From Nitrospirota bacterium (GTDB lineage Bacteria > Nitrospirota > Thermodesulfovibrionia > Thermodesulfovibrionales > SM23-35), in the NCBI GenBank assembly GCA_016212245.1, contig JACRGU010000127.1, positions 1 to 35,584 on the forward strand: a stretch of DNA of 35,584 bases. The letters are read 5' to 3'. The position numbers were made by a program, and so were the translations under genes. Of the stretch, positions 3,692-35,584 are shown piece by piece. How positions within the stretch are numbered: position 1 is the first letter of the stretch; the number at the start of each line of letters is the position of its first letter. The notes beneath the pieces were generated by a model. The model was given only the letters and a program-made list of their open reading frames with translations, did no database searches and had not been told where the DNA came from.

Positions 3692-5776
3692 ATGCGTGTA
3701 CCATTTGAATGGTTAAGGGAATTTGTTGATATCTCAGCTTCTCCTGAAGAGGTAGCAGAAAGACTTACCATGGTCGGATTTGAGGTTGAGGCAATGGAGT
3801 CTGTAAAAGACGATACTGTTTTTGAGGTTAATGTTACGCCGAACAGGCCTGACTGTCTCAGTATACTCGGTATTGCGAGAGAGGTATCTGTAGCCTTTAG
3901 GGTTCCTCTGAAAATACATGTATGCGAGATTAAAGGGGAGCTGCCTCTTTCTGATTTTTCTGTTGAGATTTTTAACCACGAGCTCTGCAGTAGATATGCA
4001 GGCAGGGTAATAAAAGATGTGAGGATTTCTGATTCTCCTGAATGGATTAAGACACGGCTCGAGAAGTGCGGCATAAGGGCTATAAATAGTGTTGTTGATA
4101 TTACAAACTATGTTCTTTTAGAGTTTGGGCATCCACTCCATGCATTTGATGCTGATACAATCAATGGTAAAAAAATAAAGGTTGGCATGCCAGATACTGT
4201 ACTCCTCCAAACTCCAAACTCCAAACTCCAAACTAAAATTAAGACACTCGATGGTGTTGAGCGTGAAATATTAGGAGACTCTCTTCTGATATGGGATGCT
4301 GAAAATCCCATAGCCGTTGCTGGAGTTATGGGTGGGCTGGAAACAGAAGTCAATGACTCCACAGCGAATGTATTTCTTGAAAGTGCATATTTTGAGCCTT
4401 TTTCGATCAGGAGGACATCAAAGAGGCTGAATCTCATAAGCGAGTCTTCCTACAGGTTTGAAAGGGGGGCTGATATAGAGTTTCTTGAGAAGGCCCTCAA
4501 CAGGGCAGCCCTCATGATAAGGGAAATTGCTGGAGGAACTATATATGAAATAATAGATGTGTATCCAGTGAGATATGTGCCTGAACCTATAAAGATAAGA
4601 TACGATAGGATTAATAGAATCTTAGGGACAGAGATCTCGAATGCTGATATGCTCAAGATCCTGAAGAAGCTGGGCATTACCACAGAGGATAAGGGAGATT
4701 TTTTTATTGTATATCCCTCTGCATACAGGCGTGACATTAAGAGAGATAGTGATGTAGCTGAAGAGATAGCGAGGTCTTACGGCTATGATAGAATTCCATC
4801 GAGGATTCCGAGGAGCCCTCTTTCTTCAGGAAAGCTGGATAAAAAGATGATGAATATCATTCGGATAAGGGAAGCTATGAGAAAATCAGGATTCACAGAG
4901 GTTATTAATTACAGTTTTATGAGTCCATCGAGTCTCGATGTGATTGCCGTCCCTCAGGCTGACAGGAGGCGGAATGTTATTGTCATAAATAATCCTTTAA
5001 GACAGGATGAATCCCTGCTGAGGACAACACTGATTCCAGCCTTGATTGGAAACTTTAAATATAACCTGGATAGGGGGATAAGAGATATAAGGTTCTTCGA
5101 GATATCGAGTGTCTTTGAGGATATTGGGAGGCCCCTTCCATTAGAAGAGTTAAGGCTTGGAGGTATATTCTACAGGGATAAGACCCCTTCTCTATGGAAG
5201 GAGGATGTAGAGGGATTCTTTATCACAAAGGGTGCTATCGAATCCATGTTTGAAGAGTTAAAGATAAATGAATATTCATTCTCCTCATCTTCAGAGCTAT
5301 TTCTACATAAAGGCCAGGCATCTGATATATATGTTAGAGGCGCTTATGCGGGATACCTCGGGGTCCTCGGACCAGAAATAGTAGAAAGGCTTGATTTAAA
5401 GAAACAGAGACCGGAGATTGTTGTATTCGAACTTAACCTCGATCTGCTTTTGACACTCATACCTGATTCGATAAAATATAACGAGATACCGAGGTATCCC
5501 TATGTGGAGCGTGATATTGCCATTATTGTTGATGAAAGCCTCTCTGCTTCTGAGATTAAAGAGATCATCAGAACTTTCCCCTCAGAACTCATAGAAGAGG
5601 TTTCAGTCTTCGATTCCTACAGGGGAAGCAATATCCCTGAAGGGAAGAAAAGCCTCGCATTCAATATCAGGTACAGGGCGAAGGACAGGACACTGACCGA
5701 CGATGAGGTTGAAGAGCTTCATGCCTCACTTGTGGAGCATATACTTGAGAAGACAGGTGGGGAACTGAGAAGGTAA
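3692..5776 (+). CDS. pheT: Phenylalanine--tRNA ligase beta subunit, short form (694 aa) lacking the N-terminal OB-fold tRNA-binding (B2) domain
   Basis: The N-terminus MRVPFEWLREFV... passes directly into ...VNVTPNRPDCLSILGIAREV. The B3/4, B5 and FDX-ACB-like C-terminal regions are recognisable. Four tandem TCCAAAC heptamers lie in frame at 4206-4233. Confidence 0.93.
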   Translation: MRVPFEWLREFVDISASPEEVAERLTMVGFEVEAMESVKDDTVFEVNVTPNRPDCLSILGIAREVSVAFRVPLKIHVCEIKGELPLSDFSVEIFNHELCSRYAGRVIKDVRISDSPEWIKTRLEKCGIRAINSVVDITNYVLLEFGHPLHAFDADTINGKKIKVGMPDTVLLQTPNSKLQTKIKTLDGVEREILGDSLLIWDAENPIAVAGVMGGLETEVNDSTANVFLESAYFEPFSIRRTSKRLNLISESSYRFERGADIEFLEKALNRAALMIREIAGGTIYEIIDVYPVRYVPEPIKIRYDRINRILGTEISNADMLKILKKLGITTEDKGDFFIVYPSAYRRDIKRDSDVAEEIARSYGYDRIPSRIPRSPLSSGKLDKKMMNIIRIREAMRKSGFTEVINYSFMSPSSLDVIAVPQADRRRNVIVINNPLRQDESLLRTTLIPALIGNFKYNLDRGIRDIRFFEISSVFEDIGRPLPLEELRLGGIFYRDKTPSLWKEDVEGFFITKGAIESMFEELKINEYSFSSSSELFLHKGQASDIYVRGAYAGYLGVLGPEIVERLDLKKQRPEIVVFELNLDLLLTLIPDSIKYNEIPRYPYVERDIAIIVDESLSASEIKEIIRTFPSELIEEVSVFDSYRGSNIPEGKKSLAFNIRYRAKDRTLTDDEVEELHASLVEHILEKTGGELRR

Positions 5777-5777
5777 A

Positions 5778-5810
5778 CCCCGTTAGAAGAGCTTCGTCTT
5801 TCTAACGGGG
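5778..5810 (+). terminator. Perfect 11-bp stem hairpin immediately after the pheT stop (no T tract)
   Basis: ccccgttagaa (5778-5788) pairs with ttctaacgggg (5800-5810). The same arm sequence recurs at 21700-21727. Confidence 0.5.
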
Positions 5811-5817
5811 TAAACCA

Positions 5818-5846
5818 TTGACACTTTATATATTTTCGAGTATAAA
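5818..5846 (+). promoter_or_regulatory. Sigma70-like promoter (TTGACA-17 nt-TATAAA) directly in front of the cytochrome gene
   Basis: TTGACA lies at 5818-5823 and TATAAA at 5841-5846. The ATG at 5854 follows 7 nt after the -10 box with no SD, so the mRNA may be leaderless. Confidence 0.45.
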
Positions 5847-5853
5847 TTAGACA

Positions 5854-6879
5854 ATGAATAGAGCTATAAAATTTTTCTCTGTATGTTTTTTACTTATTAT
5901 CCTGCCAATCTTAGGATGTACCTATCTTAAGACCTCAAGACCTATCCTTCCTATAAAAGAATACGAAAAGATGATTGTGGGGAGATTTGACGCTGAGTAT
6001 GTTGGCACTGACAGGTGTCTTTCAGCCTGTCATGCCCATGATAGGATAAGGGCATCTTTTGATGTAAGCACAATGGGGGTTCAGCTCTCGAGAGAGTCAG
6101 GCCTTCCGCTTGTAAACTGCGAATCCTGCCATGGCCCTGGAAGCTTAGCAATAAAGGATATAACCTTAGAAAGGGTAAGGGCTGATGAGGAGAAAGGAAT
6201 AAAGACGACATGCGACTACAAGACCCTTATTGATATCAAAAACCTGCCTGCCCCTGCCCAATCACTTATCTGTCTGAAATGCCATACAGGTAATGCAACC
6301 TTTAATCTTCATAACTGGAATGCAGGTATCCATGCTATAAATGATGTCTCATGTCTCGATTGTCATGATATCTGTAAAACCTTTAAAGCTGGTAGTCCTG
6401 ACCTGAAGGTGAGGCCGAGGGATACGGCTGAGATGTGCTATAAATGCCATACCCATGCGAGGGCTGAATTTATGCTTCCGAGCCATCATCCTGTTCCTGA
6501 GAGAAAGGTCTTCTGCACAAGCTGTCATGACCCCCATGATGGTGGTAGTGAAAAACCATTCAGGAGGTCAACTATCAAGGATACATGCACATACTGCCAT
6601 GTAGAAAAGGCAGGGCCATTCGTCTTTGAACATGGCGGTTTAACAGATGACTGTATGGCATGCCACAGCAGCCATGGTTCTCCTAATAATAACCTTCTTA
6701 ATGTCAGGATGCCATTTCTATGTCTCCAGTGTCACGAGGGTCATGTTGTCAGCAGGGATGGGACTCCAACTATAGCGGAATCAAAGAGGGCCTTTTACAC
6801 AAGATGTACAGACTGTCATCCAACAATTCATGGAACAGATATTCCATCAGCAGGTGGAAGAGGAAGTTTTACACAATGA
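5854..6879 (+). CDS. Decahaem c-type cytochrome, lipoprotein signal (MtrA/DmsE/PioA-like)
   Basis: It has nine CxxCH motifs plus one CxxxCH (CLSACH) in 341 aa. The lipobox is LPILG-C. GPFVFEHGG...CMACHSSHGS and the C-terminal CTDCHPTIHGTD are typical of periplasmic multihaem wires. Confidence 0.85.
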   Translation: MNRAIKFFSVCFLLIILPILGCTYLKTSRPILPIKEYEKMIVGRFDAEYVGTDRCLSACHAHDRIRASFDVSTMGVQLSRESGLPLVNCESCHGPGSLAIKDITLERVRADEEKGIKTTCDYKTLIDIKNLPAPAQSLICLKCHTGNATFNLHNWNAGIHAINDVSCLDCHDICKTFKAGSPDLKVRPRDTAEMCYKCHTHARAEFMLPSHHPVPERKVFCTSCHDPHDGGSEKPFRRSTIKDTCTYCHVEKAGPFVFEHGGLTDDCMACHSSHGSPNNNLLNVRMPFLCLQCHEGHVVSRDGTPTIAESKRAFYTRCTDCHPTIHGTDIPSAGGRGSFTQ

Positions 6880-6924
6880 ACCCATCATGCCAACAAGTCT
6901 ATACGTACGAAAGGGAATAAAAAT

Positions 6925-7063
6925 GTCATTCCCGCGCAGGCGGGAATCCAGACGTCGTCCCCCGTATCAAGTACGGGGCAGGCTCTGCGAAACTTGTCCC
7001 TGCGGAAGCAGGGAGCAGGGAACTATACAAAAGGAATTGGATTCCTGTTTTCACAGGAATAAC
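6925..7063. repeat. Composite MITE/REP-like element built from four short hairpins, copy A
   Basis: The four hairpins are attcccgc-gcag-gcgggaat, ccccgta-tcaag-tacgggg, tccctgc-ggaa-gcaggga and attcctgt-tttc-acaggaat. It shares modules and a 37-nt identical block (ctatacaaaaggaattggattcctgttttcacaggaa) with 10125-10243. Confidence 0.8.
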
Positions 7064-7129
7064 AGATTAGGAGTATTTCCAGGTGAAATATATTAAAAAA
7101 GTAGCAGTGCAGCAGAGCAACAATACGGT

Positions 7130-7918
7130 ATGTTTCTTTTTCTACTGTATCCTCTTACTGTTTACTGTTCACTGTTTCCTGCCTATGCTGAAGAGCCAGA
7201 CGAAGAGTATGAGGTAGAAGAAGAGATTACGCTCGAATATGTTTATGAGGAAGAGGTCCCGAAGATTAAACCCCAATTTAAAGTCAAATTAGGCTATGGG
7301 ATTGTGGATGAAAGTGGTTCTGGAAGGGCTGGCGAATTCGATTATCTCCATTCCTCTCTCACAGGTGGCCTCAAGCTTACAGCGTACCCTCTTCCACACA
7401 GGATCGAGCTTGAGTATGAAGGTCTGAATATAAAGGACTTTTATTCTGAGATAGCTTATGCATACAAAGACATATTCCTTTCGAGGCTTATATCCACAGG
7501 ACTCTATCATAACCTCGACCATTACTATTACCCGACCCCGTATGGTGTAAATTTAGAGTCCCCACCACGTGTCCTGATGTATAACGACAGAGACTCTGAG
7601 GACAAATATGGTGTAAGGGTGGATATGCATTATCTATTCTTGAGATTCAAGATACCTGACTTCCCCCTGCATCTGTATTTAGATGGGAAGCTTTATGAGA
7701 AGGAAGGGACAAAACAGCAGAGGTTTCTCAGCGGTTATCATGGAAACATAGAGATGGTCTCAAGGACAAGAAGTATAGATTTTAGAACAGAAGAGGTTAC
7801 TATAGGTACTAATAGCCACCTCGGACCAATAGAGATTGACCTCAGCCATTATGAAAGAAACTTTAATGTTAAAGGTGATAGGGTCCTCTATGACAACTTT
7901 CCTGCTACTGCGGGGTAG
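7130..7918 (+). CDS. Outer-membrane beta-barrel protein, N-terminal part (MtrB/PioB-like); probably one gene with 7836..9095
   Basis: The signal peptide is MFLFLLYPLTVYCSLFPAYA-EE, followed by alternating amphipathic strands. The ORF ends at TAG 7916 just after a GGGG run, and the barrel-like sequence continues in the next frame. Confidence 0.7.
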   Translation: MFLFLLYPLTVYCSLFPAYAEEPDEEYEVEEEITLEYVYEEEVPKIKPQFKVKLGYGIVDESGSGRAGEFDYLHSSLTGGLKLTAYPLPHRIELEYEGLNIKDFYSEIAYAYKDIFLSRLISTGLYHNLDHYYYPTPYGVNLESPPRVLMYNDRDSEDKYGVRVDMHYLFLRFKIPDFPLHLYLDGKLYEKEGTKQQRFLSGYHGNIEMVSRTRSIDFRTEEVTIGTNSHLGPIEIDLSHYERNFNVKGDRVLYDNFPATAG

Positions 7919-9095
7919 GGCTGCAGATATATACCCGCACAATCTTATACCAGAGATAAGGGAATCGTCTAACACTATTAAGATTCATACATCATATACA
8001 GGACAGATAGTTGCTTCTGCAACACTTAATAGGGGTGAGAGAAGGAATAAGGACAGCAGAGCTGAGGTTGATTATCTAAATGGTGTAGGAGAGCTTACAT
8101 GGATGCCTCAACACAATATTGCGGTATTTCTTAAATACAGGCATTTTGACCATGATGTAGATAATCCGGATACGGTTTCGATCACGGGAACGGGGTTAGG
8201 TAATACATATACATATGCAGTCAGACCATCTCTATCTACAGAAAGGGATGTGATTTCTACTGCCTTGAGGTATCGGCCAGTGAATAACCTTACCTTGCGG
8301 GCTGAATATTCATGGGAGGAGATTGACAGGAAGAATAGTGATAAATGGAACCTTCCAGGTAAGACAAATAAGAACACATTCACCCTTTCTGCAACAACAA
8401 GACCTCTTAAAAGATTGAATCTGAAGGCGTTCTATACACATAAGGAGATTGACAATCCAGCATACAACTATGAGCCAGATATCTCTAACCAGGCGAAGCT
8501 GACCGCCACATGGAATACCACTCCTGAACTTACATTCTTTGGGACTTACAGCCTTACAAGAGACAGGAGAGGTGATCTCGGCAATCAACTCTCTGAGGGT
8601 GAAAGAAGTGCAGATAGGGATATGATAATGGGAAATATGACATATATGATTTTGAAAGACCTGTCCTTTACAGCAGGCTATGCATATTTTAGAAATGAGG
8701 TAAAGCAGGATATAAAATATAGGCAACTTGTGGGTGGGGCACTTGGTACCGCCCTCAATGACAGGGGAGTCCCTTACAAAGATACTATAGATAATTTTTA
8801 CATCGCTCTCAGTTATATAAAAAATAGATTCAATCTGAACGGGCATGTTAGCTATACCATTTCAGAGGGTAAATTCAGTCCTAACATCACTGAAGCCCTT
8901 CAACCTGCCTCTATAGCATTATTCTCTAAATTAAAGGTCTATGAAACCGAGACTTCTATATGGGGAGAGTATGAGGTTACAAAGGGTTGGTGGGTTGGAT
9001 TGAGATATGAATATAATAATTTCGATGATAAGATTGACAGCAGCTATGATAGTAGAGTCCATATGACCTTTTTAACTATCTCGAAGAGGTGGTGA
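7836..9095 (+). CDS. Outer-membrane beta-barrel protein, C-terminal part (MtrB/PioB-like); real coding probably starts near 7917 as a continuation of 7130..7918
   Basis: Tyr/Arg/Asn-rich strand-turn pattern (YSLTRDRRGD, FTAGYAYFRNEV) is visible. The C-terminal aromatic residue (...TFLTISKRW) is typical of BAM-dependent OMPs. It lies directly downstream of a decahaem cytochrome. Confidence 0.7.
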   Translation: MTSAIMKETLMLKVIGSSMTTFLLLRGRAADIYPHNLIPEIRESSNTIKIHTSYTGQIVASATLNRGERRNKDSRAEVDYLNGVGELTWMPQHNIAVFLKYRHFDHDVDNPDTVSITGTGLGNTYTYAVRPSLSTERDVISTALRYRPVNNLTLRAEYSWEEIDRKNSDKWNLPGKTNKNTFTLSATTRPLKRLNLKAFYTHKEIDNPAYNYEPDISNQAKLTATWNTTPELTFFGTYSLTRDRRGDLGNQLSEGERSADRDMIMGNMTYMILKDLSFTAGYAYFRNEVKQDIKYRQLVGGALGTALNDRGVPYKDTIDNFYIALSYIKNRFNLNGHVSYTISEGKFSPNITEALQPASIALFSKLKVYETETSIWGEYEVTKGWWVGLRYEYNNFDDKIDSSYDSRVHMTFLTISKRW

Positions 9096-9180
9096 TGGAC
9101 AAAAAAAGTTCAAAGTTGAAAGTTCAAAGTTTAAAGTTAAAAGTTATTTTTTATTTTTTACTTCTCACTTCTCACTTGTA
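9096..9180. repeat. Period-7 repeat array pair (AGTTCAA/AGTTGAA/AGTTTAA/AGTTAAA ... TTCTCAC x2)
   Basis: The sequence is gttcaaagttgaaagttcaaagtttaaagttaaaagtt, then a T-rich loop, then ttacttctcacttctcactt. The two halves are imperfect reverse complements. Confidence 0.85.
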
Positions 9181-9215
9181 ATGTATTTGCTGCTGAGAAG
9201 GCCATCGGCATAATC

Positions 9216-10052
9216 ATGACAGGCAATATCCCCTACTACAATGAGATGCATCATGCCTTCGTCTCAAAACTTCAGAGAGAGGGATATGCCGATAACGTGA
9301 AGATAATAATCCAGAAGCCTTATCCTGACCCTATTTCATGGAGCAATGCTGTAAGAAAACTTGTGGCAGCAGATGTTGATCTCATCGTGACATACGGGGC
9401 ACCTGCAACACTGTCAGCCGTCAGGGAAAGGATAAAAATCCCAATTGTCTATTCAGGTGTTTATGAACCGATTGCTAAGGGCATAAAATCTAAAAATGTA
9501 ACAGGCATCAGTTTCAGGGTACCTGTTTCGAGTCTCATCCGTTATCTCAGAGGTGTAACGACTGTTTCGAGCCTTGGGGTTATTTATAATGAGGCTGAGG
9601 AAGACTCGGTTCATCAATTAATGGAATTGATGAGACTTTCAGAACAGTATGGGTTTGAGGTCGAAAAGATAAGACTGAAAAGGCCTGAGGATGCTAACAG
9701 GATGCTCTCTTATAAAAAGACTGATGCTATCTTTATTACCAGTAGCTCCTTAGTGAATATGGCGGCTGATAGTATTATTAATATTGCAAAGGCCAATAGA
9801 GTTCCTACAGTCTCATTGCTTTCAGGCACGACAGGATCGGAAGCAATTATCACCCTTTCTGTAAAGCCTGGTGAACAGGGTGAAAAAGCCGCAGAAAAGG
9901 TCATTAAGATACTTAATGGGATACCGGCCGAAAGGATTCAGGCAGAATCATCGAGGGGTACAGAGCTTATCTTTAACATGAAAGAGGCTAATGCTATGGG
10001 GCTCAGGTTGTCAATGGACCTTATAACAGAGGCTACGAGGATAATAAAGTGA
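9216..10052 (+). CDS. Periplasmic substrate-binding-protein-like protein (ABC_sub_bind type); start uncertain
   Basis: The type I PBP-like pattern (GIIMTGNIPYY..., VDLIVTYGAPAT, TDAIFITSS) is present. The frame is open back to 9141 and encodes a signal-peptide-like KLFFIFYFSLLTCNVFA-AEK. No ATG, GTG or TTG is available there. Confidence 0.7.
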   Translation: MTGNIPYYNEMHHAFVSKLQREGYADNVKIIIQKPYPDPISWSNAVRKLVAADVDLIVTYGAPATLSAVRERIKIPIVYSGVYEPIAKGIKSKNVTGISFRVPVSSLIRYLRGVTTVSSLGVIYNEAEEDSVHQLMELMRLSEQYGFEVEKIRLKRPEDANRMLSYKKTDAIFITSSSLVNMAADSIINIAKANRVPTVSLLSGTTGSEAIITLSVKPGEQGEKAAEKVIKILNGIPAERIQAESSRGTELIFNMKEANAMGLRLSMDLITEATRIIK

Positions 10053-10090
10053 TTAAAAATAAATTCAAAATTCAAACCCTTATGCCATAA

Positions 10091-11128
10091 GTGGTACAAA
10101 AGAATATGAAAATGCTGCCAGATTGTCATTCCTGCGGAAGCAGGAATCCAGACGCCGTCTCTGCGAAAGCAGGGAGCTATACAAAAGGAATTGGATTCCT
10201 GTTTTCACAGGAAACTCTGGATTCCCGTTTTCACGGGAATGACATTTTCGGAGCAAAACTCAAAATTATAGGACTCGTGTTCTTTATCTTAATCCTCATT
10301 TCCCCTTTATACGCATTCTCTGAACAGAAGGAGTTACTTATAGGGCTTATCCCTGAAGAGAATATCTTCAAGCAGATGGATCGCTACAGGCCCTTAGCTG
10401 CATATCTCTCTGAGAAACTCGGTATTAAGGTAAGGTTAACCATTCTCAGCAAGTATGGAGATGTTATTGATAGATTTGCCTCTAGAAGGATGGATGGCGC
10501 CTTTTTTGAGGCGTTCACAGCAAACCTTGCTATGGTAAAACTTAATGTTGAACCCATAGCAAGGCCGATGAACCTTGATGGGACATCAACTATTAAAGGT
10601 TACATATTTGTTAGAAAAGACAGTGGAATAAAGTCTATAAAGGATATGAAGGATAAAATTGTAGTATTTGTTGATAAGGCAACAGCAACAGGTTATGTAT
10701 TTACTATTGCCTTCTTCAGGGAAAATGGTGTTAGAGATATAGACAGCTATTTCAGCGAATACTATTTTACAGGAAGCCATGATTCAGCAGTGTATGCTGT
10801 TTTAGATAACAGGGCAGATATAGGCAGTGCAGGAAGCAGGTTTTATCAGAGGATAATAGATAAGGACCCGGCGATTAAGAATGAACTGCAGATTTTAGCG
10901 ACATCTCAGGAAGTTCCTGATATTACCCTCTGTATAAGGCGTGATCTTCCTCCTGAGCTGAAACTCAGGATAAAAGAGGTGCTCTTAAATATGGATAAAG
11001 ACCCTACAGGGAAAGAGGTCTTGAAGAAGTTTGGGGCATTGAGGTTTATCAGTGCTGGTAAGGCTGATTTCAAGCCTGTCTTTGATTTAGCAAAAAAGGC
11101 AGGGATAGACATTATAGAGATTAGATAA
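10091..11128 (+). CDS. PhnD-like (phosphonate-binding fold) periplasmic binding protein; true start probably well downstream of 10091
   Basis: LLIGLIPEENIFKQMDRYRPLAAYLSEKLGIKV...GYVF...DIGS is the PhnD-family pattern. The signal peptide KLKIIGLVFFILILISPLYA-FSEQ begins about 10256. Codons 10106-10243 are repeat-derived. Confidence 0.75.
   Translation: MVQKNMKMLPDCHSCGSRNPDAVSAKAGSYTKGIGFLFSQETLDSRFHGNDIFGAKLKIIGLVFFILILISPLYAFSEQKELLIGLIPEENIFKQMDRYRPLAAYLSEKLGIKVRLTILSKYGDVIDRFASRRMDGAFFEAFTANLAMVKLNVEPIARPMNLDGTSTIKGYIFVRKDSGIKSIKDMKDKIVVFVDKATATGYVFTIAFFRENGVRDIDSYFSEYYFTGSHDSAVYAVLDNRADIGSAGSRFYQRIIDKDPAIKNELQILATSQEVPDITLCIRRDLPPELKLRIKEVLLNMDKDPTGKEVLKKFGALRFISAGKADFKPVFDLAKKAGIDIIEIR
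10125..10243. repeat. Composite MITE/REP-like element, copy B, bounded by 27-nt inverted repeats
   Basis: gtcattcctgcggaagcaggaatccag at 10125-10151 faces ctggattcccgttttcacgggaatgac at 10217-10243. Its translation gives the ...DSRFHGND... type peptide typical of spurious ORFs over this repeat family. Confidence 0.8.
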
Positions 11129-11131
11129 TCA

Positions 11132-12601
11132 ATGAAGAAAAGACTTGTTCTTTCACTCTTCCTTTTATTCCTTCTGTTTTCAGCAGGTGCAGGCATGAGC
11201 GTGCTCTATATCAATAAAACAACCTCAGATCTCGACTCACTGATAAAGCTTCACAGGGTAGAGATAATACGCCAGGATCTTGTTATCAATGTTCATACTG
11301 TTCAGACACATCTTTATACTATAGAGACTGAATTTGGTAAGGAGCTTGATGTAATAGTTGAGAATGTCACAGACCTCGACAATTCTGTCCAGAGCTGTAT
11401 TGGATGCCATCATGGTAAGGAGATTTCAGCAAAGATAGAGGATATCAGGAATTTAGTGGAACAGTATAAAGAGGCATTGAGTTACTTTATAACAACAACT
11501 GCTAACCCGGAGAGGGTTAAGAGACTGCAGATGGTTGGTGCAGAGATAGGAAATTCATTGCTATCAAAGACACAGGAGATGGCCTTTATTGCAAACCGGA
11601 GGCTAAATGATAGGACTATAAAGGCGATGAAGGATATCAAGAATTCAGAGATTATACTTTTTATAACCATTATCCTTGCGTTCTTTATCGCCCTTCCTAT
11701 TGCTGTCGTCCTGACAAGGGGAATAACAAAGCCTATATCAGAGCTTGTTAGTGCTACAAGAAAGGTAAAGACAGGTGAGTTAGGATACACCTCAGCCTAT
11801 AAAGGTAAGGACGAATTTGGCGAACTTATAAGTGCCTTCAATGAGATGAGCATCTCTCTTAAAGAGAGTAATGATAGGATTTTACAACAGATGCAGGAAC
11901 TCAAGGATGCACAGGAACAGCTTATCCAGACTGCAAAGCTTGCAGCATTAGGAGAGATTGCATCCAATATCGCCCATGAGCTTAATAACCCCCTCACATG
12001 TATCCTCGGCTATGCAGGATTGATTAAGGAAGAGAAGGAGATTGACAGTATTATGCGCAATACCGAGGTGATTATAAAAGAATCCATGAGGGCGAGGGAT
12101 ATCGTACGTCAGTTGCTCGAGTTTTCAAGAAAAAGGCCACTTGAGATAAAAAGGGTTGATCTAAATGAGACCATCAAAGATATTGTCAGGTTTGTTTCAG
12201 TCCAGTTAAAGAATGCGAATATTACGACAATCGAGAACTATGGTGAGATTCCGCATATATCAGGTGATGAAAATCAGCTTAAACAGGTCTTTCTTAATGT
12301 CATCAATAATGCAATATTTGCTATGCCCAAGGGTGGGAACATAACCATAAATACTGATGTTAAAGACGGACAGGTATATATAGATATCTCTGACACAGGG
12401 ATTGGAATTCCAGAAGAAATAATGCATAGGATTTTCGAACCATTTTTCACTACAAAACAAGAAAGGGGTACAGGCCTCGGCCTATCAATAAGTTACAGGA
12501 TAATACAGAGCCATGGCGGGAGGATTAATGTTGAAAGTGAGGAGGGGAAGGGGACGAGATTCATTATCACATTTCCTGTAACCCTCAAATCAGTTTCCTG
12601 A
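11132..12601 (+). CDS. Sensor histidine kinase (2 TM, periplasmic domain with CxxCH, HAMP, HisKA, HATPase_c)
   Basis: TM1 covers residues 5-27 and TM2 about 173-195. CIGCH is at residues 89-93 (11396-11410). H-box [10 protein letters not shown]-box [11 protein letters not shown]-boxes DTGIGI and GTGLGLS are present. Confidence 0.9.
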
Positions 12602-13235
12602 CATATATCTCCTTTGCTATCTCAGGGTCAATCGCAATAGTTGTTTCATCTATCTGTAGGACATAAGATGGGGTTCTCTGTAAGAGTCTTATAATACTCC
12701 CTGCGGTGATTCCCAGGGAATTGAGCTTGCTCAGCCTCGATGATTTTGCTGGTACAATAAAGGTAATTCTACCCTTTGAGCCCACCTCAAATTCGGACAG
12801 TCTGGTAACAACAGGCTCAACTTCCACTCTGTATTTCTTGCAGCACTCTCCCCTCGGTATGGGCTTATCATGGGGGCAGGTTGGTGGATGGCCAAGGAAG
12901 GTGCACACACTGTCAGTAAGCTCTTCGCTCAGTATGTGTTCCATCTTACATGCATCTGTAATGACAGTATCTCCAGGCATCTCAAAGACATCGGTGAAGA
13001 GGCGTTCTGCAAGGCGTAGCCTTCTTACCAGTGCCTTTGCCAGTGAATAGCCTTTATCAGTGAATTGAATTTTATCCTCGGAAATGACTGTAAGTCCTTC
13101 GGTTTTCAGTGTGACAATGAGGTTTTCGACATCATCATCCTCAGAACTCAATCTGAAACGATTAAGGCTATGATGGCCTTCTTCATTAAGAAGCCATATC
13201 AGCTCTAATGCCTCATCAATTTGTTCTTTATCCAT
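12585..13235 (-). CDS. DtxR/MntR-family metal-dependent transcriptional regulator with C-terminal FeoA/SH3-like domain
   Basis: It has an N-terminal wHTH and the dimerisation/metal-site region RRLRLAERLFTDVF...MEHILS...LGHPPTCPHDKPIP. The C-terminal FeoA-like segment is (L)SEFEVGSKGRI...LNSLGITAGSII. It overlaps the kinase 3' end convergently. Confidence 0.8.
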   Translation of the reverse strand: MDKEQIDEALELIWLLNEEGHHSLNRFRLSSEDDDVENLIVTLKTEGLTVISEDKIQFTDKGYSLAKALVRRLRLAERLFTDVFEMPGDTVITDACKMEHILSEELTDSVCTFLGHPPTCPHDKPIPRGECCKKYRVEVEPVVTRLSEFEVGSKGRITFIVPAKSSRLSKLNSLGITAGSIIRLLQRTPSYVLQIDETTIAIDPEIAKEIYVRKLI

Positions 13236-13277
13236 GTTAATTCTTACTTCTCACTTTACATTTTATAAAAATAAAAG

Positions 13278-13889
13278 TCAAAATGGAAGCTCTAATGACA
13301 TTACCCTCTGAAAACTTTTTCTGTGGATAGGGCAGGGGCCGTATAACCGTAGCATATAGAGATGTTCTCTCGTGGAATAACCCTTATGTTTTTCAAAATT
13401 ATAATCTGGATATTGCCGATGATAATCTATCATGATCTTATCCCTTACAAACTTTGCGATTATCGAGGCAGCAGCAACTGAGGCACTTATGCCCTCTCCT
13501 TTTATGGGTGATAACTGCTTTATTGGAATTGATGGAAGGAATACTGCATCAATGACAAGTATATCCGGAGGTGTGGAAAGGTCGTCTACTGCAATCTGCA
13601 TCGCAAGTCTCGTGGCCCTGAGGATATTTAATCTATCAATCTCTTCAGGACCGACAATGCCTATGCCTATATCTTTAGAGAAACTGAGAATCTCGTAGAA
13701 AAGGAATTCTCTTTCTTTCTCAGGTACTTTTTTGGAATCCCTGAGCCCTTCAATCCTGATGCCTTCTATCAGGACAACTGCCGCAGCAACAACAGGGCCA
13801 GCAAGTGGACCCCTTCCAGCCTCATCAATACCAGCTATCCTTAAAAACCCTTTTTTTCTGAGGGATTCGTCATGCTGGTAAATATCCAT
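13278..13889 (-). CDS. rnhB: Ribonuclease HII
   Basis: IAGIDEAGRGPLAGPVV...DSKK...ASIIAK motifs are present. Confidence 0.92.
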   Translation of the reverse strand: MDIYQHDESLRKKGFLRIAGIDEAGRGPLAGPVVAAAVVLIEGIRIEGLRDSKKVPEKEREFLFYEILSFSKDIGIGIVGPEEIDRLNILRATRLAMQIAVDDLSTPPDILVIDAVFLPSIPIKQLSPIKGEGISASVAAASIIAKFVRDKIMIDYHRQYPDYNFEKHKGYSTREHLYMLRLYGPCPIHRKSFQRVMSLELPF

Positions 13890-16191: not shown

Positions 16192-17187
16192 CTATCTTTG
16201 TGGAATAAAAACAACGTCTCTTATCTCTGAATATGTGCCTTCCTTTGAGGGGCCGAGTGCTGTTATCCTGTAGGCCCTTTTTGTTAATGGCTTCTCCTTG
16301 TCAAGGAATGTCGGGGTCTGGGTCTCTCCTATAAGTATAAACCCCTCTTTTTTATCAACTTCCCTGTAAATCCTGTAACCGCTTATCCATGTCTCAGCAG
16401 GTTCCTTCCAGATGAGGTATACATTTTCCGGTGTAGATAATGCCTGAAGGCCACGAGGAGGGGGTGGTATAAATTCCGAAGGGTTTATTTCGAGTTCCTC
16501 TGATGCAGGGCCCTCATCTCTCGTATTGCCTCCTATAAGGCTTCTTACTGTGTAATAGACAGGCCTTTTTATGTCGAAGTTGTCCTTGAAAGATGTTTCT
16601 CTGATTGGTTCTTTATTCGCGGGTGTTAACTGGTATCTGCCTTTCTCATTGCCTTTATAGATGTTATATAGAATTCCATCTCCTGCACCTTCCCAGTTCA
16701 ATGTTAGTGAGTCATGTTCTACTTTAAATAGAATCTTTCCGGGAGGGGAGGGTACAGGCTTAGGAATGATGGTTATAATATTTGAATCACCACTCGTTAT
16801 ACCTCTCAGATTCTGGGAAATAGTTTTATATTTATATTCAGAGCCGATTTTAAAGTTAGTATCCATATAAGAGCGTCTGTCATTCTCAATAAATGCAATC
16901 CTTTCAAAATCCCCACCTGTTGATTTCATTATATAAAACCCTTTTATGAATGGTTCTCTGTATTTTGGAAATTCCCATAAGAGGATGATCTCAGACTCTC
17001 TATGAATGGCCTTAAGTTTAGAAGGGGGGTCTGGTTTTTCGTATGATTTCAGGGTAGGGTCACCTTTTTTACCGCAGGAGGCGAGGATGGACAGAACACA
17101 GATAACAGATATCAGATGATAGACGATTAGTCGATACTGAAGAGAAGGCAGGAGATTGCCCTTGAGCGGTTTTGAATTCCGATTCAT
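16192..17187 (-). CDS. Lipoprotein with two fibronectin-III-like repeats, function unknown
   Basis: The lipobox is ILAS-CGKKGDP (YifL-like N-terminus). Two similar ~90-aa beta-rich repeats follow (LKAIHRESEIILLWEFP... / LQALSTPENVYLIWKEP...). Confidence 0.6.
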   Translation of the reverse strand: MNRNSKPLKGNLLPSLQYRLIVYHLISVICVLSILASCGKKGDPTLKSYEKPDPPSKLKAIHRESEIILLWEFPKYREPFIKGFYIMKSTGGDFERIAFIENDRRSYMDTNFKIGSEYKYKTISQNLRGITSGDSNIITIIPKPVPSPPGKILFKVEHDSLTLNWEGAGDGILYNIYKGNEKGRYQLTPANKEPIRETSFKDNFDIKRPVYYTVRSLIGGNTRDEGPASEELEINPSEFIPPPPRGLQALSTPENVYLIWKEPAETWISGYRIYREVDKKEGFILIGETQTPTFLDKEKPLTKRAYRITALGPSKEGTYSEIRDVVFIPQR

Positions 17188-33021: not shown

Positions 33022-33822
33022 TCACCGTTTTCTTCTAAGGATTAAGGAGATAAAGAAAAGCAGGGTGGCTGTCAGGACAATACTTCCTCCGGGCGCAATA
33101 TCAAATTCATAAGACAGGAAAAGCCCTGTAATTGTAGAAAACACTGCAGCGCCGCATGAGATTGCAATCATAGAAGTCAGACTTTTAGCAAATAGCTGTG
33201 CGGTCGCCCCTGGTATGACGAGCAGGGCTGAGATAAGGATGATACCCACAACCTTCATCGCGATAACAATGGATATTGAAAGGACAAGCAGGAAAAGGAT
33301 ATTAATGGCCCTCACTGAGATACCGCTTACTTGTGCTATCTCTTCATTATATGTTGTCAGAAATATCTCTTTTAAAAAGAGCAGGATGACCCCGATTACT
33401 GATATTGTTGTAAGCAGTGTAATTAGGACTTCTCTGTCAGTAATGGCTAATATATTTCCGAAAAGATAACCAAAGAGGTCAACATTATATTCCCTGGAGA
33501 GACTTACGAGTATAATACCGAGTGCCCTCGAGCTCGCAAAAAATATTCCAATAGAGGCGTCTTCTGAAACCTTCCCCTTTCTGCTTACTACTTCAATCCC
33601 GAGTGCAACTGCGATAGAATAAATAGTTGCAGTAATGAGGGGATTTATACCGGTAAAAAACCCAATCGCCACTCCACCAAATGCTGCATGTGATATGCCA
33701 GCGCCTATGAAGGACATCTTACGCAGTACTACAAATACTGAGACCAGGCCTGATATCAGACTGACCATGATACCTACAAAAAAGGCCTTCTGCATGAATG
33801 CAGAGCTTAAGATTTCGATCAT
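33022..33822 (-). CDS. znuB: Metal (Zn/Mn) ABC transporter permease, ABC-3 family
   Basis: It is a polytopic membrane protein of about 8 TM segments with FMQKAF..G and ...GAGISHAAFGGVA.G patterns, sitting in an operon with the ATPase and the SBP. Confidence 0.8.
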   Translation of the reverse strand: MIEILSSAFMQKAFFVGIMVSLISGLVSVFVVLRKMSFIGAGISHAAFGGVAIGFFTGINPLITATIYSIAVALGIEVVSRKGKVSEDASIGIFFASSRALGIILVSLSREYNVDLFGYLFGNILAITDREVLITLLTTISVIGVILLFLKEIFLTTYNEEIAQVSGISVRAINILFLLVLSISIVIAMKVVGIILISALLVIPGATAQLFAKSLTSMIAISCGAAVFSTITGLFLSYEFDIAPGGSIVLTATLLFFISLILRRKR

Positions 33823-33833
33823 CTACCCCCCTC

Positions 33834-34619
33834 TCATTCCCTCCTCAGTCGCTCACACTTATCGCACATATCTGTGTGCATAAGGACGTCTACGTTTTTA
33901 CCGTAGAGACCTGTTAATACTCCTTCATTTAGAGCACCAAGCGGATTCCCATGGTAGTGAAATGTGTGATTCAGACATGCTATTTCATCCACATAGGTTG
34001 TTATAGCTCCAATATCATGCGAAGCCATTAGGACAGTAAGATTAAATCTCTTCTGTAGGCCTTTCAGAAGGTGGTAGAAATCTTCCTGTCCGACCACATC
34101 AATACCTGTACTGGGCTCATCGAGTATTAAAATCCTCGGTTCTGCGGCAAGTGCCCTGGCAATTGAAACCCTCTGCTGCTGTCCTCCCGAGAGTTGACCG
34201 TAAGGCACATCTTTAAGATCCGCCATCCCCATCATGGAAAGACATTCTACTGTTTTCTCTATGTCCTTTCCACGTGGCCATCTCAGCATGCCGACCTTCC
34301 CATACCTTCCCATCATAACCACATCTATTACCCTGACAGGAAAATTTGGCTCGATCTTTAAGGTTTGTGGTAGATAACCGAATATACCGCCAGTTCTTAA
34401 AATATCTTCAGGGGGTTTTCCAAAGATACTTACTTCTCCTGACGAAGGCTTTATGAGTCCGAGTATTACCCTCAGAAGTGTTGTTTTGCCACCTCCGTTC
34501 GGGCCTACAATACCTAAAAACTTTCCTTCATCCATGGAAAGGCTTATGTCTTTCAAGATATCTCTGCCGCTGAGGGCCACACTTAAGTTATTAATTTCGA
34601 TTGCCTTCATATCATGCAA
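33834..34619 (-). CDS. znuC: Metal (Zn/Mn) ABC transporter ATP-binding protein
   Basis: Walker A GPNGGGKTT, signature LSGGQQQRV, Walker B ILILDEP and H-loop SHD are present. The C-terminal tail contains CDKC. Confidence 0.85.
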   Translation of the reverse strand: MHDMKAIEINNLSVALSGRDILKDISLSMDEGKFLGIVGPNGGGKTTLLRVILGLIKPSSGEVSIFGKPPEDILRTGGIFGYLPQTLKIEPNFPVRVIDVVMMGRYGKVGMLRWPRGKDIEKTVECLSMMGMADLKDVPYGQLSGGQQQRVSIARALAAEPRILILDEPSTGIDVVGQEDFYHLLKGLQKRFNLTVLMASHDIGAITTYVDEIACLNHTFHYHGNPLGALNEGVLTGLYGKNVDVLMHTDMCDKCERLRRE

Positions 34620-34693
34620 AACAATTAAAAATTACTAATAAGTTCATAAGTAAGATGTCATCCCGTCATCTCTTTTTACTCTTAACTTTTAAC

Positions 34694-35584
34694 CTATTTC
34701 ATCACATTTTCCATAACTGAAATATTATATCTCATCATTTCTATGTACGTCTCTCTACCTTTCTGTCCGCCGATAGGGTCGAGGTATAAGACCTTTGCGC
34801 TGCTTTCCCTTGCTACAGCCTCAGCAATCTTAGGATTAAATTGAGGCTCGGCAAAGATAACCCTGTTTCCGATGCGATTGACTTCTTGAATAATCCTTGC
34901 AATATGTTTCGGACTCGGCTCTTTGCCTGGTGCTTCCTCAATAACACCAGCAACCTTGAGTCCGTATCTCTTTGAAAAATAATTCCATGCTGAATGAAAT
35001 GTAACATATTCTTTTATTGTAAAAGTCTTAACTTTTTCGGAGATCTCCTTATCGAGGTGTAGAAGCTTTTCTCTATATATAGATGCATTTTTTTTATAAA
35101 CCCCGGCATTGCTTGGGTCAGCCTCGATAAGTGTCTTTTCTATCTTTGTAACTATATCCCTTGCAATCAGAGGGTCAAGCCAAATGTGAGGATCGGCATA
35201 TGAGTCAAGTGATGAGTGTTGAGTGATGAGTGTTGAGTGATGAGAATGAACATCTCTTATCAATTGTATCCCAAATGATGAATCAACAACGATGAGCCTT
35301 TTACTTCCTGATGCCTTTATCATCTTTTCTGCCCAGAATTCAAGCCCAGCACCTATCTTAACGAATACCCTCGCCTCAGATAATTCTTTCATAACCTTAG
35401 GCGTTGGTTCATATGTATGCGGGCTTGCACCAGGAGGCAGGAGCAATTTTACATCAACACGCTCTTCTCCCACCTGTCTTACAAAGTCATATAAGGGGTA
35501 AATACTGACGATTACCTTCAGTTTCTGCCCTCCATAGAGTGAAGTAAAAAGTAAAAAGTGAAAGATGAAAAGTAAGATTATTGA
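34694..35584 (-). CDS. znuA: Metal (Zn/Mn) ABC transporter substrate-binding protein, TroA/ZnuA family; start codon lies beyond the window end
   Basis: The frame stays open upstream of the GTG at 35473 to the window edge (SIILLFIFHFLLFTSLYGGQKLKVIVSIYPLYDFVRQVGEERV...). That stretch is a signal peptide plus the conserved N-terminal strand. The PPGASPHTYEP and DPHIWLDP metal-ligand motifs are present, with a His-containing loop between them. Confidence 0.85.
   Translation of the reverse strand, partial: SIILLFIFHFLLFTSLYGGQKLKVIVSIYPLYDFVRQVGEERVDVKLLLPPGASPHTYEPTPKVMKELSEARVFVKIGAGLEFWAEKMIKASGSKRLIVVDSSFGIQLIRDVHSHHSTLITQHSSLDSYADPHIWLDPLIARDIVTKIEKTLIEADPSNAGVYKKNASIYREKLLHLDKEISEKVKTFTIKEYVTFHSAWNYFSKRYGLKVAGVIEEAPGKEPSPKHIARIIQEVNRIGNRVIFAEPQFNPKIAEAVARESSAKVLYLDPIGGQKGRETYIEMMRYNISVMENVMK

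Follow-up and report, generated by a model that had tools for sequence, protein, structure and literature searches.

A probable MtrAB-type porin-cytochrome locus in a Nitrospirota bacterium, with a frame-disrupted barrel gene and adjoining sensor genes

Porin-cytochrome conduits serve the electron exchange of Gram-negative bacteria with minerals, electrodes, and partner cells, and to our knowledge nearly all characterised examples are from Proteobacteria. This paper describes a candidate conduit locus of a Nitrospirota bacterium, which is located in a stretch of 35,584 nucleotides (assembly GCA_016212245.1, contig JACRGU010000127.1, positions 1-35,584, forward strand); this whole stretch is referred to as the window. 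The locus comprises a gene for a decahaem c-type cytochrome, a gene for a large outer-membrane β-barrel protein of which the reading frame is disrupted, two genes for periplasmic binding proteins, and a gene for a sensor histidine kinase with a periplasmic haem-c motif. An earlier note on this DNA, made from the sequence alone, had proposed that the first two genes encode an electron conduit resembling MtrAB and PioAB.

The cytochrome of 341 amino acids contains nine CxxCH motifs and one CX3CH motif (CLSACH, residues 55-60), the latter being the first of the series. The ten haem-binding motifs that had been counted earlier are therefore correct if the CX3CH is included, the canonical CxxCH being present only nine times. 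The N-terminus, consisting of MNRAIKFFSVCFLLIILPILG followed by Cys22 (5917-5919), forms a signal peptide with a lipobox at its end. A search with the DmsE-family decahaem model of NCBIfam (TIGR03508), which the earlier note had proposed as a check, yielded 230.8 bits at a cut-off of 192.2 and covered model positions 1-257 of 258. The only strong match among the PDB entries was MtrA (6r2q_A, E value 1.4e-32), with which residues 50-333 align colinearly and with the haem motifs in register. In MtrA the signal peptide is plain and all ten motifs are CxxCH; in the alignment the CX3CH stands opposite the first of these, with a one-residue gap.

The conservation of these features was assessed in the 120 closest homologues of the cytochrome and, more widely, in representatives of clusters at 50% identity. 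The lipobox noted earlier proved to be real and universal in the 120 closest homologues, of which the signal peptides all end in a small residue plus Cys, followed by a conserved stretch (LK[ST]S[RK]PI.P.KEYE). The same 120 proteins all have CX3CH as their first motif. Among the cluster representatives, the combination of an initial CX3CH with nine CxxCH motifs was restricted to the three nearest clusters, some 83 other DmsE-family representatives of similar length having ten CxxCH each, and a lipobox was present in only a minority of these other representatives. Moreover, the alignment of the clade revealed nine invariant His residues outside the motifs and an invariant Met74 in an STMG motif (window positions 6070-6081). 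Met74 aligns with a His of MtrA and completes, together with the nine His residues, a set of ten candidate distal ligands, so that one haem near the periplasmic end may be His/Met-ligated.

Public data contain thousands of homologues of the cytochrome, many of which are named 'DmsE family decaheme c-type cytochrome'. The ratio of nonsynonymous to synonymous substitution rates (dN/dS) of the cytochrome gene relative to its nearest relative is 0.07, and the flanking housekeeping genes gave values of 0.06-0.18. An AlphaFold2 (AF2) model of the cytochrome alone was too poor for a fold search and was not used (predicted local distance difference test, pLDDT, 45; predicted template-modelling score, pTM, 0.38); low AF2 confidence is expected for a multihaem chain without its haems. 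Assignment of the cytochrome to NrfB, NrfH, or NrfA, of which the first had been named beforehand as a finding that would speak against a conduit, was rejected, as the model matches were partial and sub-threshold (PF22678, 22 bits at a threshold of 27; TIGR03153, 26 at 134). No nrfA gene was found in the 35.6-kb window.

The barrel gene follows on the same strand, and the earlier description of about 650 codons ending in ...SKRW holds for the repaired protein of 654 amino acids, with its aromatic C-terminus that is conserved across homologues; as sequenced, the gene is frameshifted and divided over two ORFs. The Pfam model MtrB_PioB (PF11854) matched the C-terminal barrel ORF with 49.9 bits at a gathering threshold of 23, and a precomputed match to this model is carried by many, albeit not all, of the barrel homologues. 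The two model searches that the earlier note had proposed, for the cytochrome and for the barrel, were both favourable. An AF2 model of the repaired barrel, built from 65 sequences, reached a pLDDT of 88 and a pTM of 0.81 and contains 26 strands of at least 8 residues. This number lies within the 26-28 strands that had been anticipated and equals that of MtrB (PMC12133095). In a Foldseek search, the best match of the model was MtrB (6r2q_B, E value 1.8e-21, template-modelling (TM) score 0.73), and all other matches were TonB-dependent receptors with TM scores of about 0.4. Sequence identity between the barrel and MtrB is 13%. The barrel protein has a single cysteine, at residue 13 within the signal peptide, and this signal peptide lacks a basic n-region. 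More than 200 full-length homologues (about 640-700 amino acids) are present in public data, many of them recorded as 'MtrB/PioB family outer membrane beta-barrel protein'. The nine CxxCH motifs within 341 residues, the 231 bits scored with a hidden Markov model, and the existence of more than 200 full-length homologues of the barrel lie far beyond what chance would give.

The gene order was compared in a set of related loci, for which one genome per species was scanned; this yielded 149 loci with a relative of the barrel, of which 80 were kept. Most of these belong to Nitrospirota (Thermodesulfovibrionales, Ca. Sulfobium) and some to Desulfobulbaceae; the clade is widespread in Nitrospirota and extends into some Desulfobulbaceae. 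In every species-level locus with room for an upstream gene (73 of 73), a decahaem cytochrome gene lies directly upstream of the barrel gene. This fixed gene pairing, together with the fold of the barrel, is the main basis on which the pair is read as an MtrAB-type conduit. As had been remarked earlier, no MtrC-type gene adjoins the pair, and no further cytochrome gene is present in the 35.6-kb window. About 17 of the 80 related loci do carry a gene for a cytochrome of 6-10 haems and 450-870 amino acids immediately upstream of the decahaem gene, i.e., in the mtrC position, and the four of these cytochromes that were tested pass PF22113 (MtrC/MtrF-like domains II/IV). With such a gene in roughly one in five related loci, the clade therefore has two-gene and three-gene forms. 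Examples of the upstream MtrC/MtrF-like gene are found at 6805-8817 in L076, 6165-8786 in L081, 5840-8326 in L065, and 7559-8923 in L021.

The features of the locus are listed in Table 1. The gene pheT lies directly upstream of the cytochrome gene, and the remaining ORFs of the window are housekeeping genes.

Table 1. Features of the cytochrome-barrel locus and the adjoining sensor genes (window positions)
Feature	Position	Strand	Basis
DmsE/MtrA-family decahaem c-type cytochrome gene, 341 amino acids, predicted lipoprotein	5854-6879	+	TIGR03508, MtrA match, haem motifs
Signal peptide with lipobox (..ILG-C22)	5854-5919	+	Sequence reading; kept in the 120 closest homologues
First haem motif CLSACH (CX3CH)	6016-6033	+	Motif scan; 120/120 close homologues
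Palindromic repeat element in the cytochrome-barrel spacer	6924-7064		Inverted repeat; 22-mer recurs at 10129, 10192, 10218
MtrB/PioB-like 26-strand outer-membrane barrel gene, 654 codons once repaired, +1 frameshift	7130-9095	+	PF11854, AF2, Foldseek
Frameshift site GGGG-TAG, one surplus base relative to intact homologues, giving an in-frame TAG	7912-7918	+	Homologue comparison; Logan contig L087
Orphan periplasmic binding protein gene (ABC_sub_bind, PF04392)	9094-10052	+	Pfam, 103 bits; frame comparison with L002
PhnD-like periplasmic binding protein gene	10091-11128	+	PF12974, 193 bits; TIGR01098, 154.9 bits at cut-off 112
Sensor histidine kinase gene (transmembrane segment, periplasmic domain, transmembrane segment, HAMP, HisKA, HATPase)	11132-12601	+	Pfam
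Periplasmic CIGCHH haem-c motif of the histidine kinase	11396-11410	+	CxxCHH at residue 89
DtxR/MntR-type metal-dependent repressor gene with FeoA domain	12585-13235	-	Pfam; NCBIfam DtxR and MntR matches sub-threshold

The genes that follow the barrel are nearly as constant as the pair itself. An ABC_sub_bind gene is found after the barrel gene in 65 of 69 related loci, where it often overlaps the barrel stop codon. Sixty-two species loci had at least 3.2 kb of downstream DNA and could be classified by their gene order. In 40 of these the binding protein gene is followed by a gene for a chemoreceptor (sCache_3_2, HAMP, MCPsignal), in 14 by genes for a PhnD-like protein and a histidine kinase, as in the window, and in 4 by other genes, the final 4 loci having no binding protein gene after the barrel. 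The chemoreceptor has a length of about 690 amino acids (e.g., 12845-14920 in L029, 12792-14888 in L068, and 13046-15109 in L050), and some loci contain tandem copies of its gene. The CxxCHH motif of the kinase, positioned at residue 89 between the two transmembrane segments, is invariant in the 14 homologous kinases (14/14) as well as in that of the window. The periplasmic domain of the kinase matched no Pfam family, and a PDB search gave chance-level results only. As no gene for a permease or ATPase of an ATP-binding cassette (ABC) transporter lies next to the binding protein genes, in the window or in the loci inspected, the binding proteins look like sensor partners rather than transport components. 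The linkage to sensor genes supports, without proving, a sensory or sensor-regulated role of the conduit.

Several observations concern the DNA around these genes. The ORF of the PhnD-like protein runs through a repeat element with its first 55 codons or so (10091-10276), and no ATG, GTG, or TTG lies beside the sequence for its signal peptide, where L002, the closest relative, has a GTG. Palindromic repeats at 6924-7064 and 10113-10255 resemble miniature mobile elements and fill two intergenic spacers of the operon; their core, TGGATTCCTGTTTTCACAGGAA, occurs in 4 copies with 0 expected by chance, and different palindromic elements occupy the same two spacers in L002. A scan of positions 5700-13300 for promoters and terminators gave counts that were not above those of shuffled sequence and was uninformative on the operon structure, and no Rfam family matched within the locus. 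The repressor gene converges on the kinase gene and is found in the same position in L002 and L003, a position that hints at a link with metals. Elsewhere in the window, a 331-residue ORF without Pfam match (16192-17187, minus strand) lies among housekeeping genes. The segment 32513-32604 (minus strand) matches tRNA-Sec in Rfam (55.4 bits at a threshold of 47) and has a long variable arm; its anticodon loop CUGCAAA contains the Cys anticodon GCA, ARAGORN predicts a tRNA-Cys, and no sel genes adjoin it. Finally, a ZnuABC-type metal ABC transporter (ZnuA-like binding protein, ATPase, and ABC-3 permease; 33022-35473, minus strand) is encoded at the end of the window and has no relation to the orphan binding proteins encoded after the barrel.

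Taken together, the family models, the MtrB fold, and the invariable adjacency of the two genes bear out the conduit proposed in the earlier note, and the locus probably encodes a two-component porin-cytochrome conduit of the MtrAB/MtoAB/PioAB kind. By homology with the solved MtrAB complex, the barrel would enclose a haem chain of about 320 residues that runs from haem 1, at the N-terminus and on the periplasmic side, to haem 10, exposed on the surface of the cell, and electrons could cross the outer membrane by hopping along this chain. The lipid at the N-terminus would fasten the periplasmic end of the cytochrome to the inner leaflet of this membrane, and the putative conduit would operate without an MtrC-like partner encoded here, as is the case in MtoAB and PioAB.

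A number of observations weigh against this conclusion. At the level of families, the repaired barrel passes the Pfam model and fails the stricter NCBIfam model for MtrB/PioB (TIGR03509, 34.4 bits at a cut-off of 240); the intact barrel homologues score 25-47 bits with TIGR03509. A profile of eight barrel sequences gave chance matches only in the PDB and none to MtrB, and the relationship between the barrel and MtrB is visible only via Pfam and structure. Within the window, no quinol oxidase or reductase, no periplasmic shuttle, and no surface cytochrome is encoded. Moreover, the barrel gene is not a single ORF, as it consists of two overlapping ORFs in different frames (7130-7918, 262 amino acids; 7836-9095, 419 amino acids), and this break recurs in Logan contig L087, a separate assembly of the same sequencing run.

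The break can be described precisely. Removal of one base from GCGGGGTAGG (7910-7919) restores a continuous frame of 654 amino acids, and the surplus base is located within 7912-7916. The repaired junction (..FPATAG-RAADIYPHN..) is unbroken in the alignment with intact homologues (76% and 73% identity), and in a DNA alignment with the closest locus the barrel gene of the window has exactly one surplus base. The start of the adjoining binding protein gene is likewise out of frame: an ATG at about 9094 and the n-region are in one frame, and the h-region and the mature part, which is itself intact (9216-10052), in another. L087, which was assembled independently from SRR12113407, differs from window positions 7039-10052 by one mismatch and no gaps, and both disruptions are therefore present in the consensus of the reads.

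These disruptions would be explained if the module were a recently inactivated remnant, with a truncated barrel, a binding protein that cannot be exported, and only the cytochrome gene intact. That two successive genes are each disrupted (at 7912-7918 and within 9094-9216), with both disruptions reproduced without gaps in the contig from SRR12113407, argues for such decay, as does the finding that none of the approximately 30 other window ORFs inspected is split. The cytochrome-barrel spacer of 250 bp with its repeat element, a position where many relatives have 0-15 bp, and the barrel signal peptide without a basic n-region point in the same direction. Against it stand the dN/dS values relative to L002, which are as low as those of housekeeping genes (barrel, 0.18; binding protein, 0.14), and the repaired frames, which are free of further stops; any inactivation must therefore be very recent. 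The dN/dS comparison indicates no relaxation and cannot separate very recent inactivation from sequence error. Since both assemblies derive from the same reads, the disruptions may also stem from a systematic error in the reads or from a variant strain present as a minority. The conduit in this population has either been recently inactivated or its sequence is affected by errors, and decay of the locus is considered a serious possibility that falls somewhat short of an even chance.

A second alternative concerns function. The porin-cytochrome could mainly report the redox state outside the cell or at its surface to periplasmic signalling proteins of the same operon, i.e., the orphan binding protein and either the chemoreceptor or the PhnD-like protein with the haem-c kinase, and could thus serve taxis or regulation instead of bulk respiration. 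This would fit the nearly constant binding protein gene, the chemoreceptor or kinase genes that follow it, the lack of an adjacent ABC permease or ATPase gene in the window, and the lack of a respiratory partner encoded nearby. It would also fit the specialised periplasmic end of the cytochrome in this clade, with its lipid anchor, CX3CH motif, and invariant Met74. However, adjacency alone is no proof that electrons or signals pass between the cytochrome and the sensors, and the sensors could merely regulate the expression of a respiratory conduit or steer cells to its substrate. In addition, 4 of 69 loci lack the binding protein gene, and the MtrC/MtrF-like surface cytochrome that is added in about 17 related loci is typical of respiratory conduits. 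A sensory function is consequently judged unlikely. The more specific proposal, that the clade as a whole is a sensory porin-cytochrome in which a lipid-anchored MtrA-type wire with a specialised entry haem (CX3CH, possibly His/Met-ligated) relays the redox state of the surroundings to the sensors of its operon, appears slightly less likely still; these sensors may be a binding-protein-dependent chemoreceptor in most species and the haem-c histidine kinase here.

Import of a solute or metal by the barrel and cytochrome together with the adjacent binding proteins is very unlikely. The barrel lumen of the solved MtrAB complex (6R2Q) is filled by the cytochrome, the genes that follow encode signal transducers, and the binding proteins have no accompanying permease or ATPase gene, either in the window or at the loci inspected. 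Uptake would be in line with the two binding protein genes after the barrel and with the DtxR/MntR-type repressor gene convergent with the operon, and metal uptake was proposed for Geobacterales operons in which MtrA/MtrB-like genes stand beside ABC-transporter genes (Soares et al. 2024, PMC11492766).

A programmed +1 frameshift, with ribosomes slipping at GGG-TAG (7913-7918) in the manner of prfB to produce the full-length barrel, is highly improbable. The shift would occur exactly at the in-frame stop, and slippage from GGG to GGT restores ...PATAG-RAADIY..., colinear with the homologues. The intact homologues examined, however, are all read through this position without a shift, no conserved stimulatory element was seen, and the next gene is frame-disrupted as well, at an unrelated sequence. 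The idea that an ordinary porin or TonB-dependent-type barrel happens to adjoin a periplasmic NrfB/NrfH-like carrier is effectively refuted by the family models, the Foldseek ranking, and the conserved synteny, since its weak matches to Porin_4, NrfB-like, and NrfH models fall below the curated cut-offs that the DmsE and MtrB_PioB matches pass, TonB-dependent receptors superpose far less well than MtrB (TM scores of about 0.4 vs 0.73), and neither nrfA nor another reductase gene lies nearby.

The core finding of a porin-cytochrome pair is in itself ordinary, as automatic annotation already recognises such pairs. What is added are the features that set the cytochrome of this clade apart, its almost universal association with sensor genes, and the frame disruption of this particular copy. 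With at least 149 loci carrying a barrel relative (one genome per species), a distinct and well-conserved MtrAB-type clade is common in anaerobic Nitrospirota, which bears on the cycling of iron and sulfur in aquifers and sediments. Its near-constant link to chemoreceptors or to a haem-containing kinase provides a testable lead on the sensing of insoluble electron acceptors or donors; if the conduit were sensory, the cell would 'feel' extracellular electron donors and acceptors instead of, or besides, respiring them. Given the broken barrel gene in the available sequence, the reads of this metagenome-assembled genome should be checked before a metabolic reconstruction assigns it a working conduit.

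Comparison with known systems places the locus among several relatives. The GSU2203/GSU2204 pair of Geobacter supplies the best NCBIfam model for the barrel (NF041027, 128.2 bits) and the second-best for the cytochrome (NF041028, 210.7 bits), but both scores are below the cut-offs (350 and 325 bits, respectively), and unlike the GSU2204 family the barrel of the window contains neither CxxCH nor selenocysteine. As in the MtrAB-like pairs of Desulfuromonadia and Desulfobacterota (PMC11492766, PMC12133095), the mtrAB-like genes are clustered and mtrC is absent or located elsewhere in the genome, and as in the Geobacterales operons, genes for an 'ABC transporter substrate-binding protein' share the operon. 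In contrast, the lipobox, the CX3CH motif, and the chemoreceptor and haem-kinase genes are not described in those reports. Likewise, literature searches yielded no account of this clade in Nitrospirota, of MtrA homologues whose first haem motif is CX3CH, or of a linkage of chemoreceptor or haem-kinase genes to MtrAB-type genes, and only Soares et al. (2024) were found to mention binding protein genes beside MtrA/MtrB-like genes, in Geobacterales.

Periplasmic haem-c sensor domains are known from DcrA of Desulfovibrio and from the Geobacter chemoreceptors GSU0582 and GSU0935, which the window kinase resembles by the CxxCH in its periplasmic sensor domain. Classical DmsE/MtrA members have a plain Sec signal peptide and are soluble in the periplasm or inserted in a barrel, in contrast to the cytochrome of the window with its lipobox. 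Shewanella MtrCAB (6R2Q) is similar in that the cytochrome is colinear with MtrA and the 26-strand barrel model superposes on MtrB with a TM score of 0.73. It differs from the locus by its MtrC gene, which has no counterpart in the window but an MtrC/MtrF-like one in about 17 of the 80 related loci. From MtoAB of Sideroxydans and Gallionella and PioAB of Rhodopseudomonas palustris, the locus deviates in its predicted lipoprotein cytochrome, the CX3CH of the first haem and the invariant Met in place of one MtrA His, and the low score of the barrel with TIGR03509 (34 bits at a cut-off of 240). It deviates, moreover, in the binding protein and sensor genes that stand in place of mtoD/mtoC-like or pioC-like genes, and in its hosts, which are anaerobic Nitrospirota instead of Proteobacteria. 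MtrB of metal-reducing Gammaproteobacteria carries a conserved N-terminal CXXC motif. The barrel of the window shares with those of MtoAB and PioAB the lack of this motif. The window locus, MtoAB, and PioAB also agree in their gene order, a large barrel gene of the MtrB/PioB type being preceded immediately by a DmsE-family decahaem gene, and in an operon without an MtrC-type gene.

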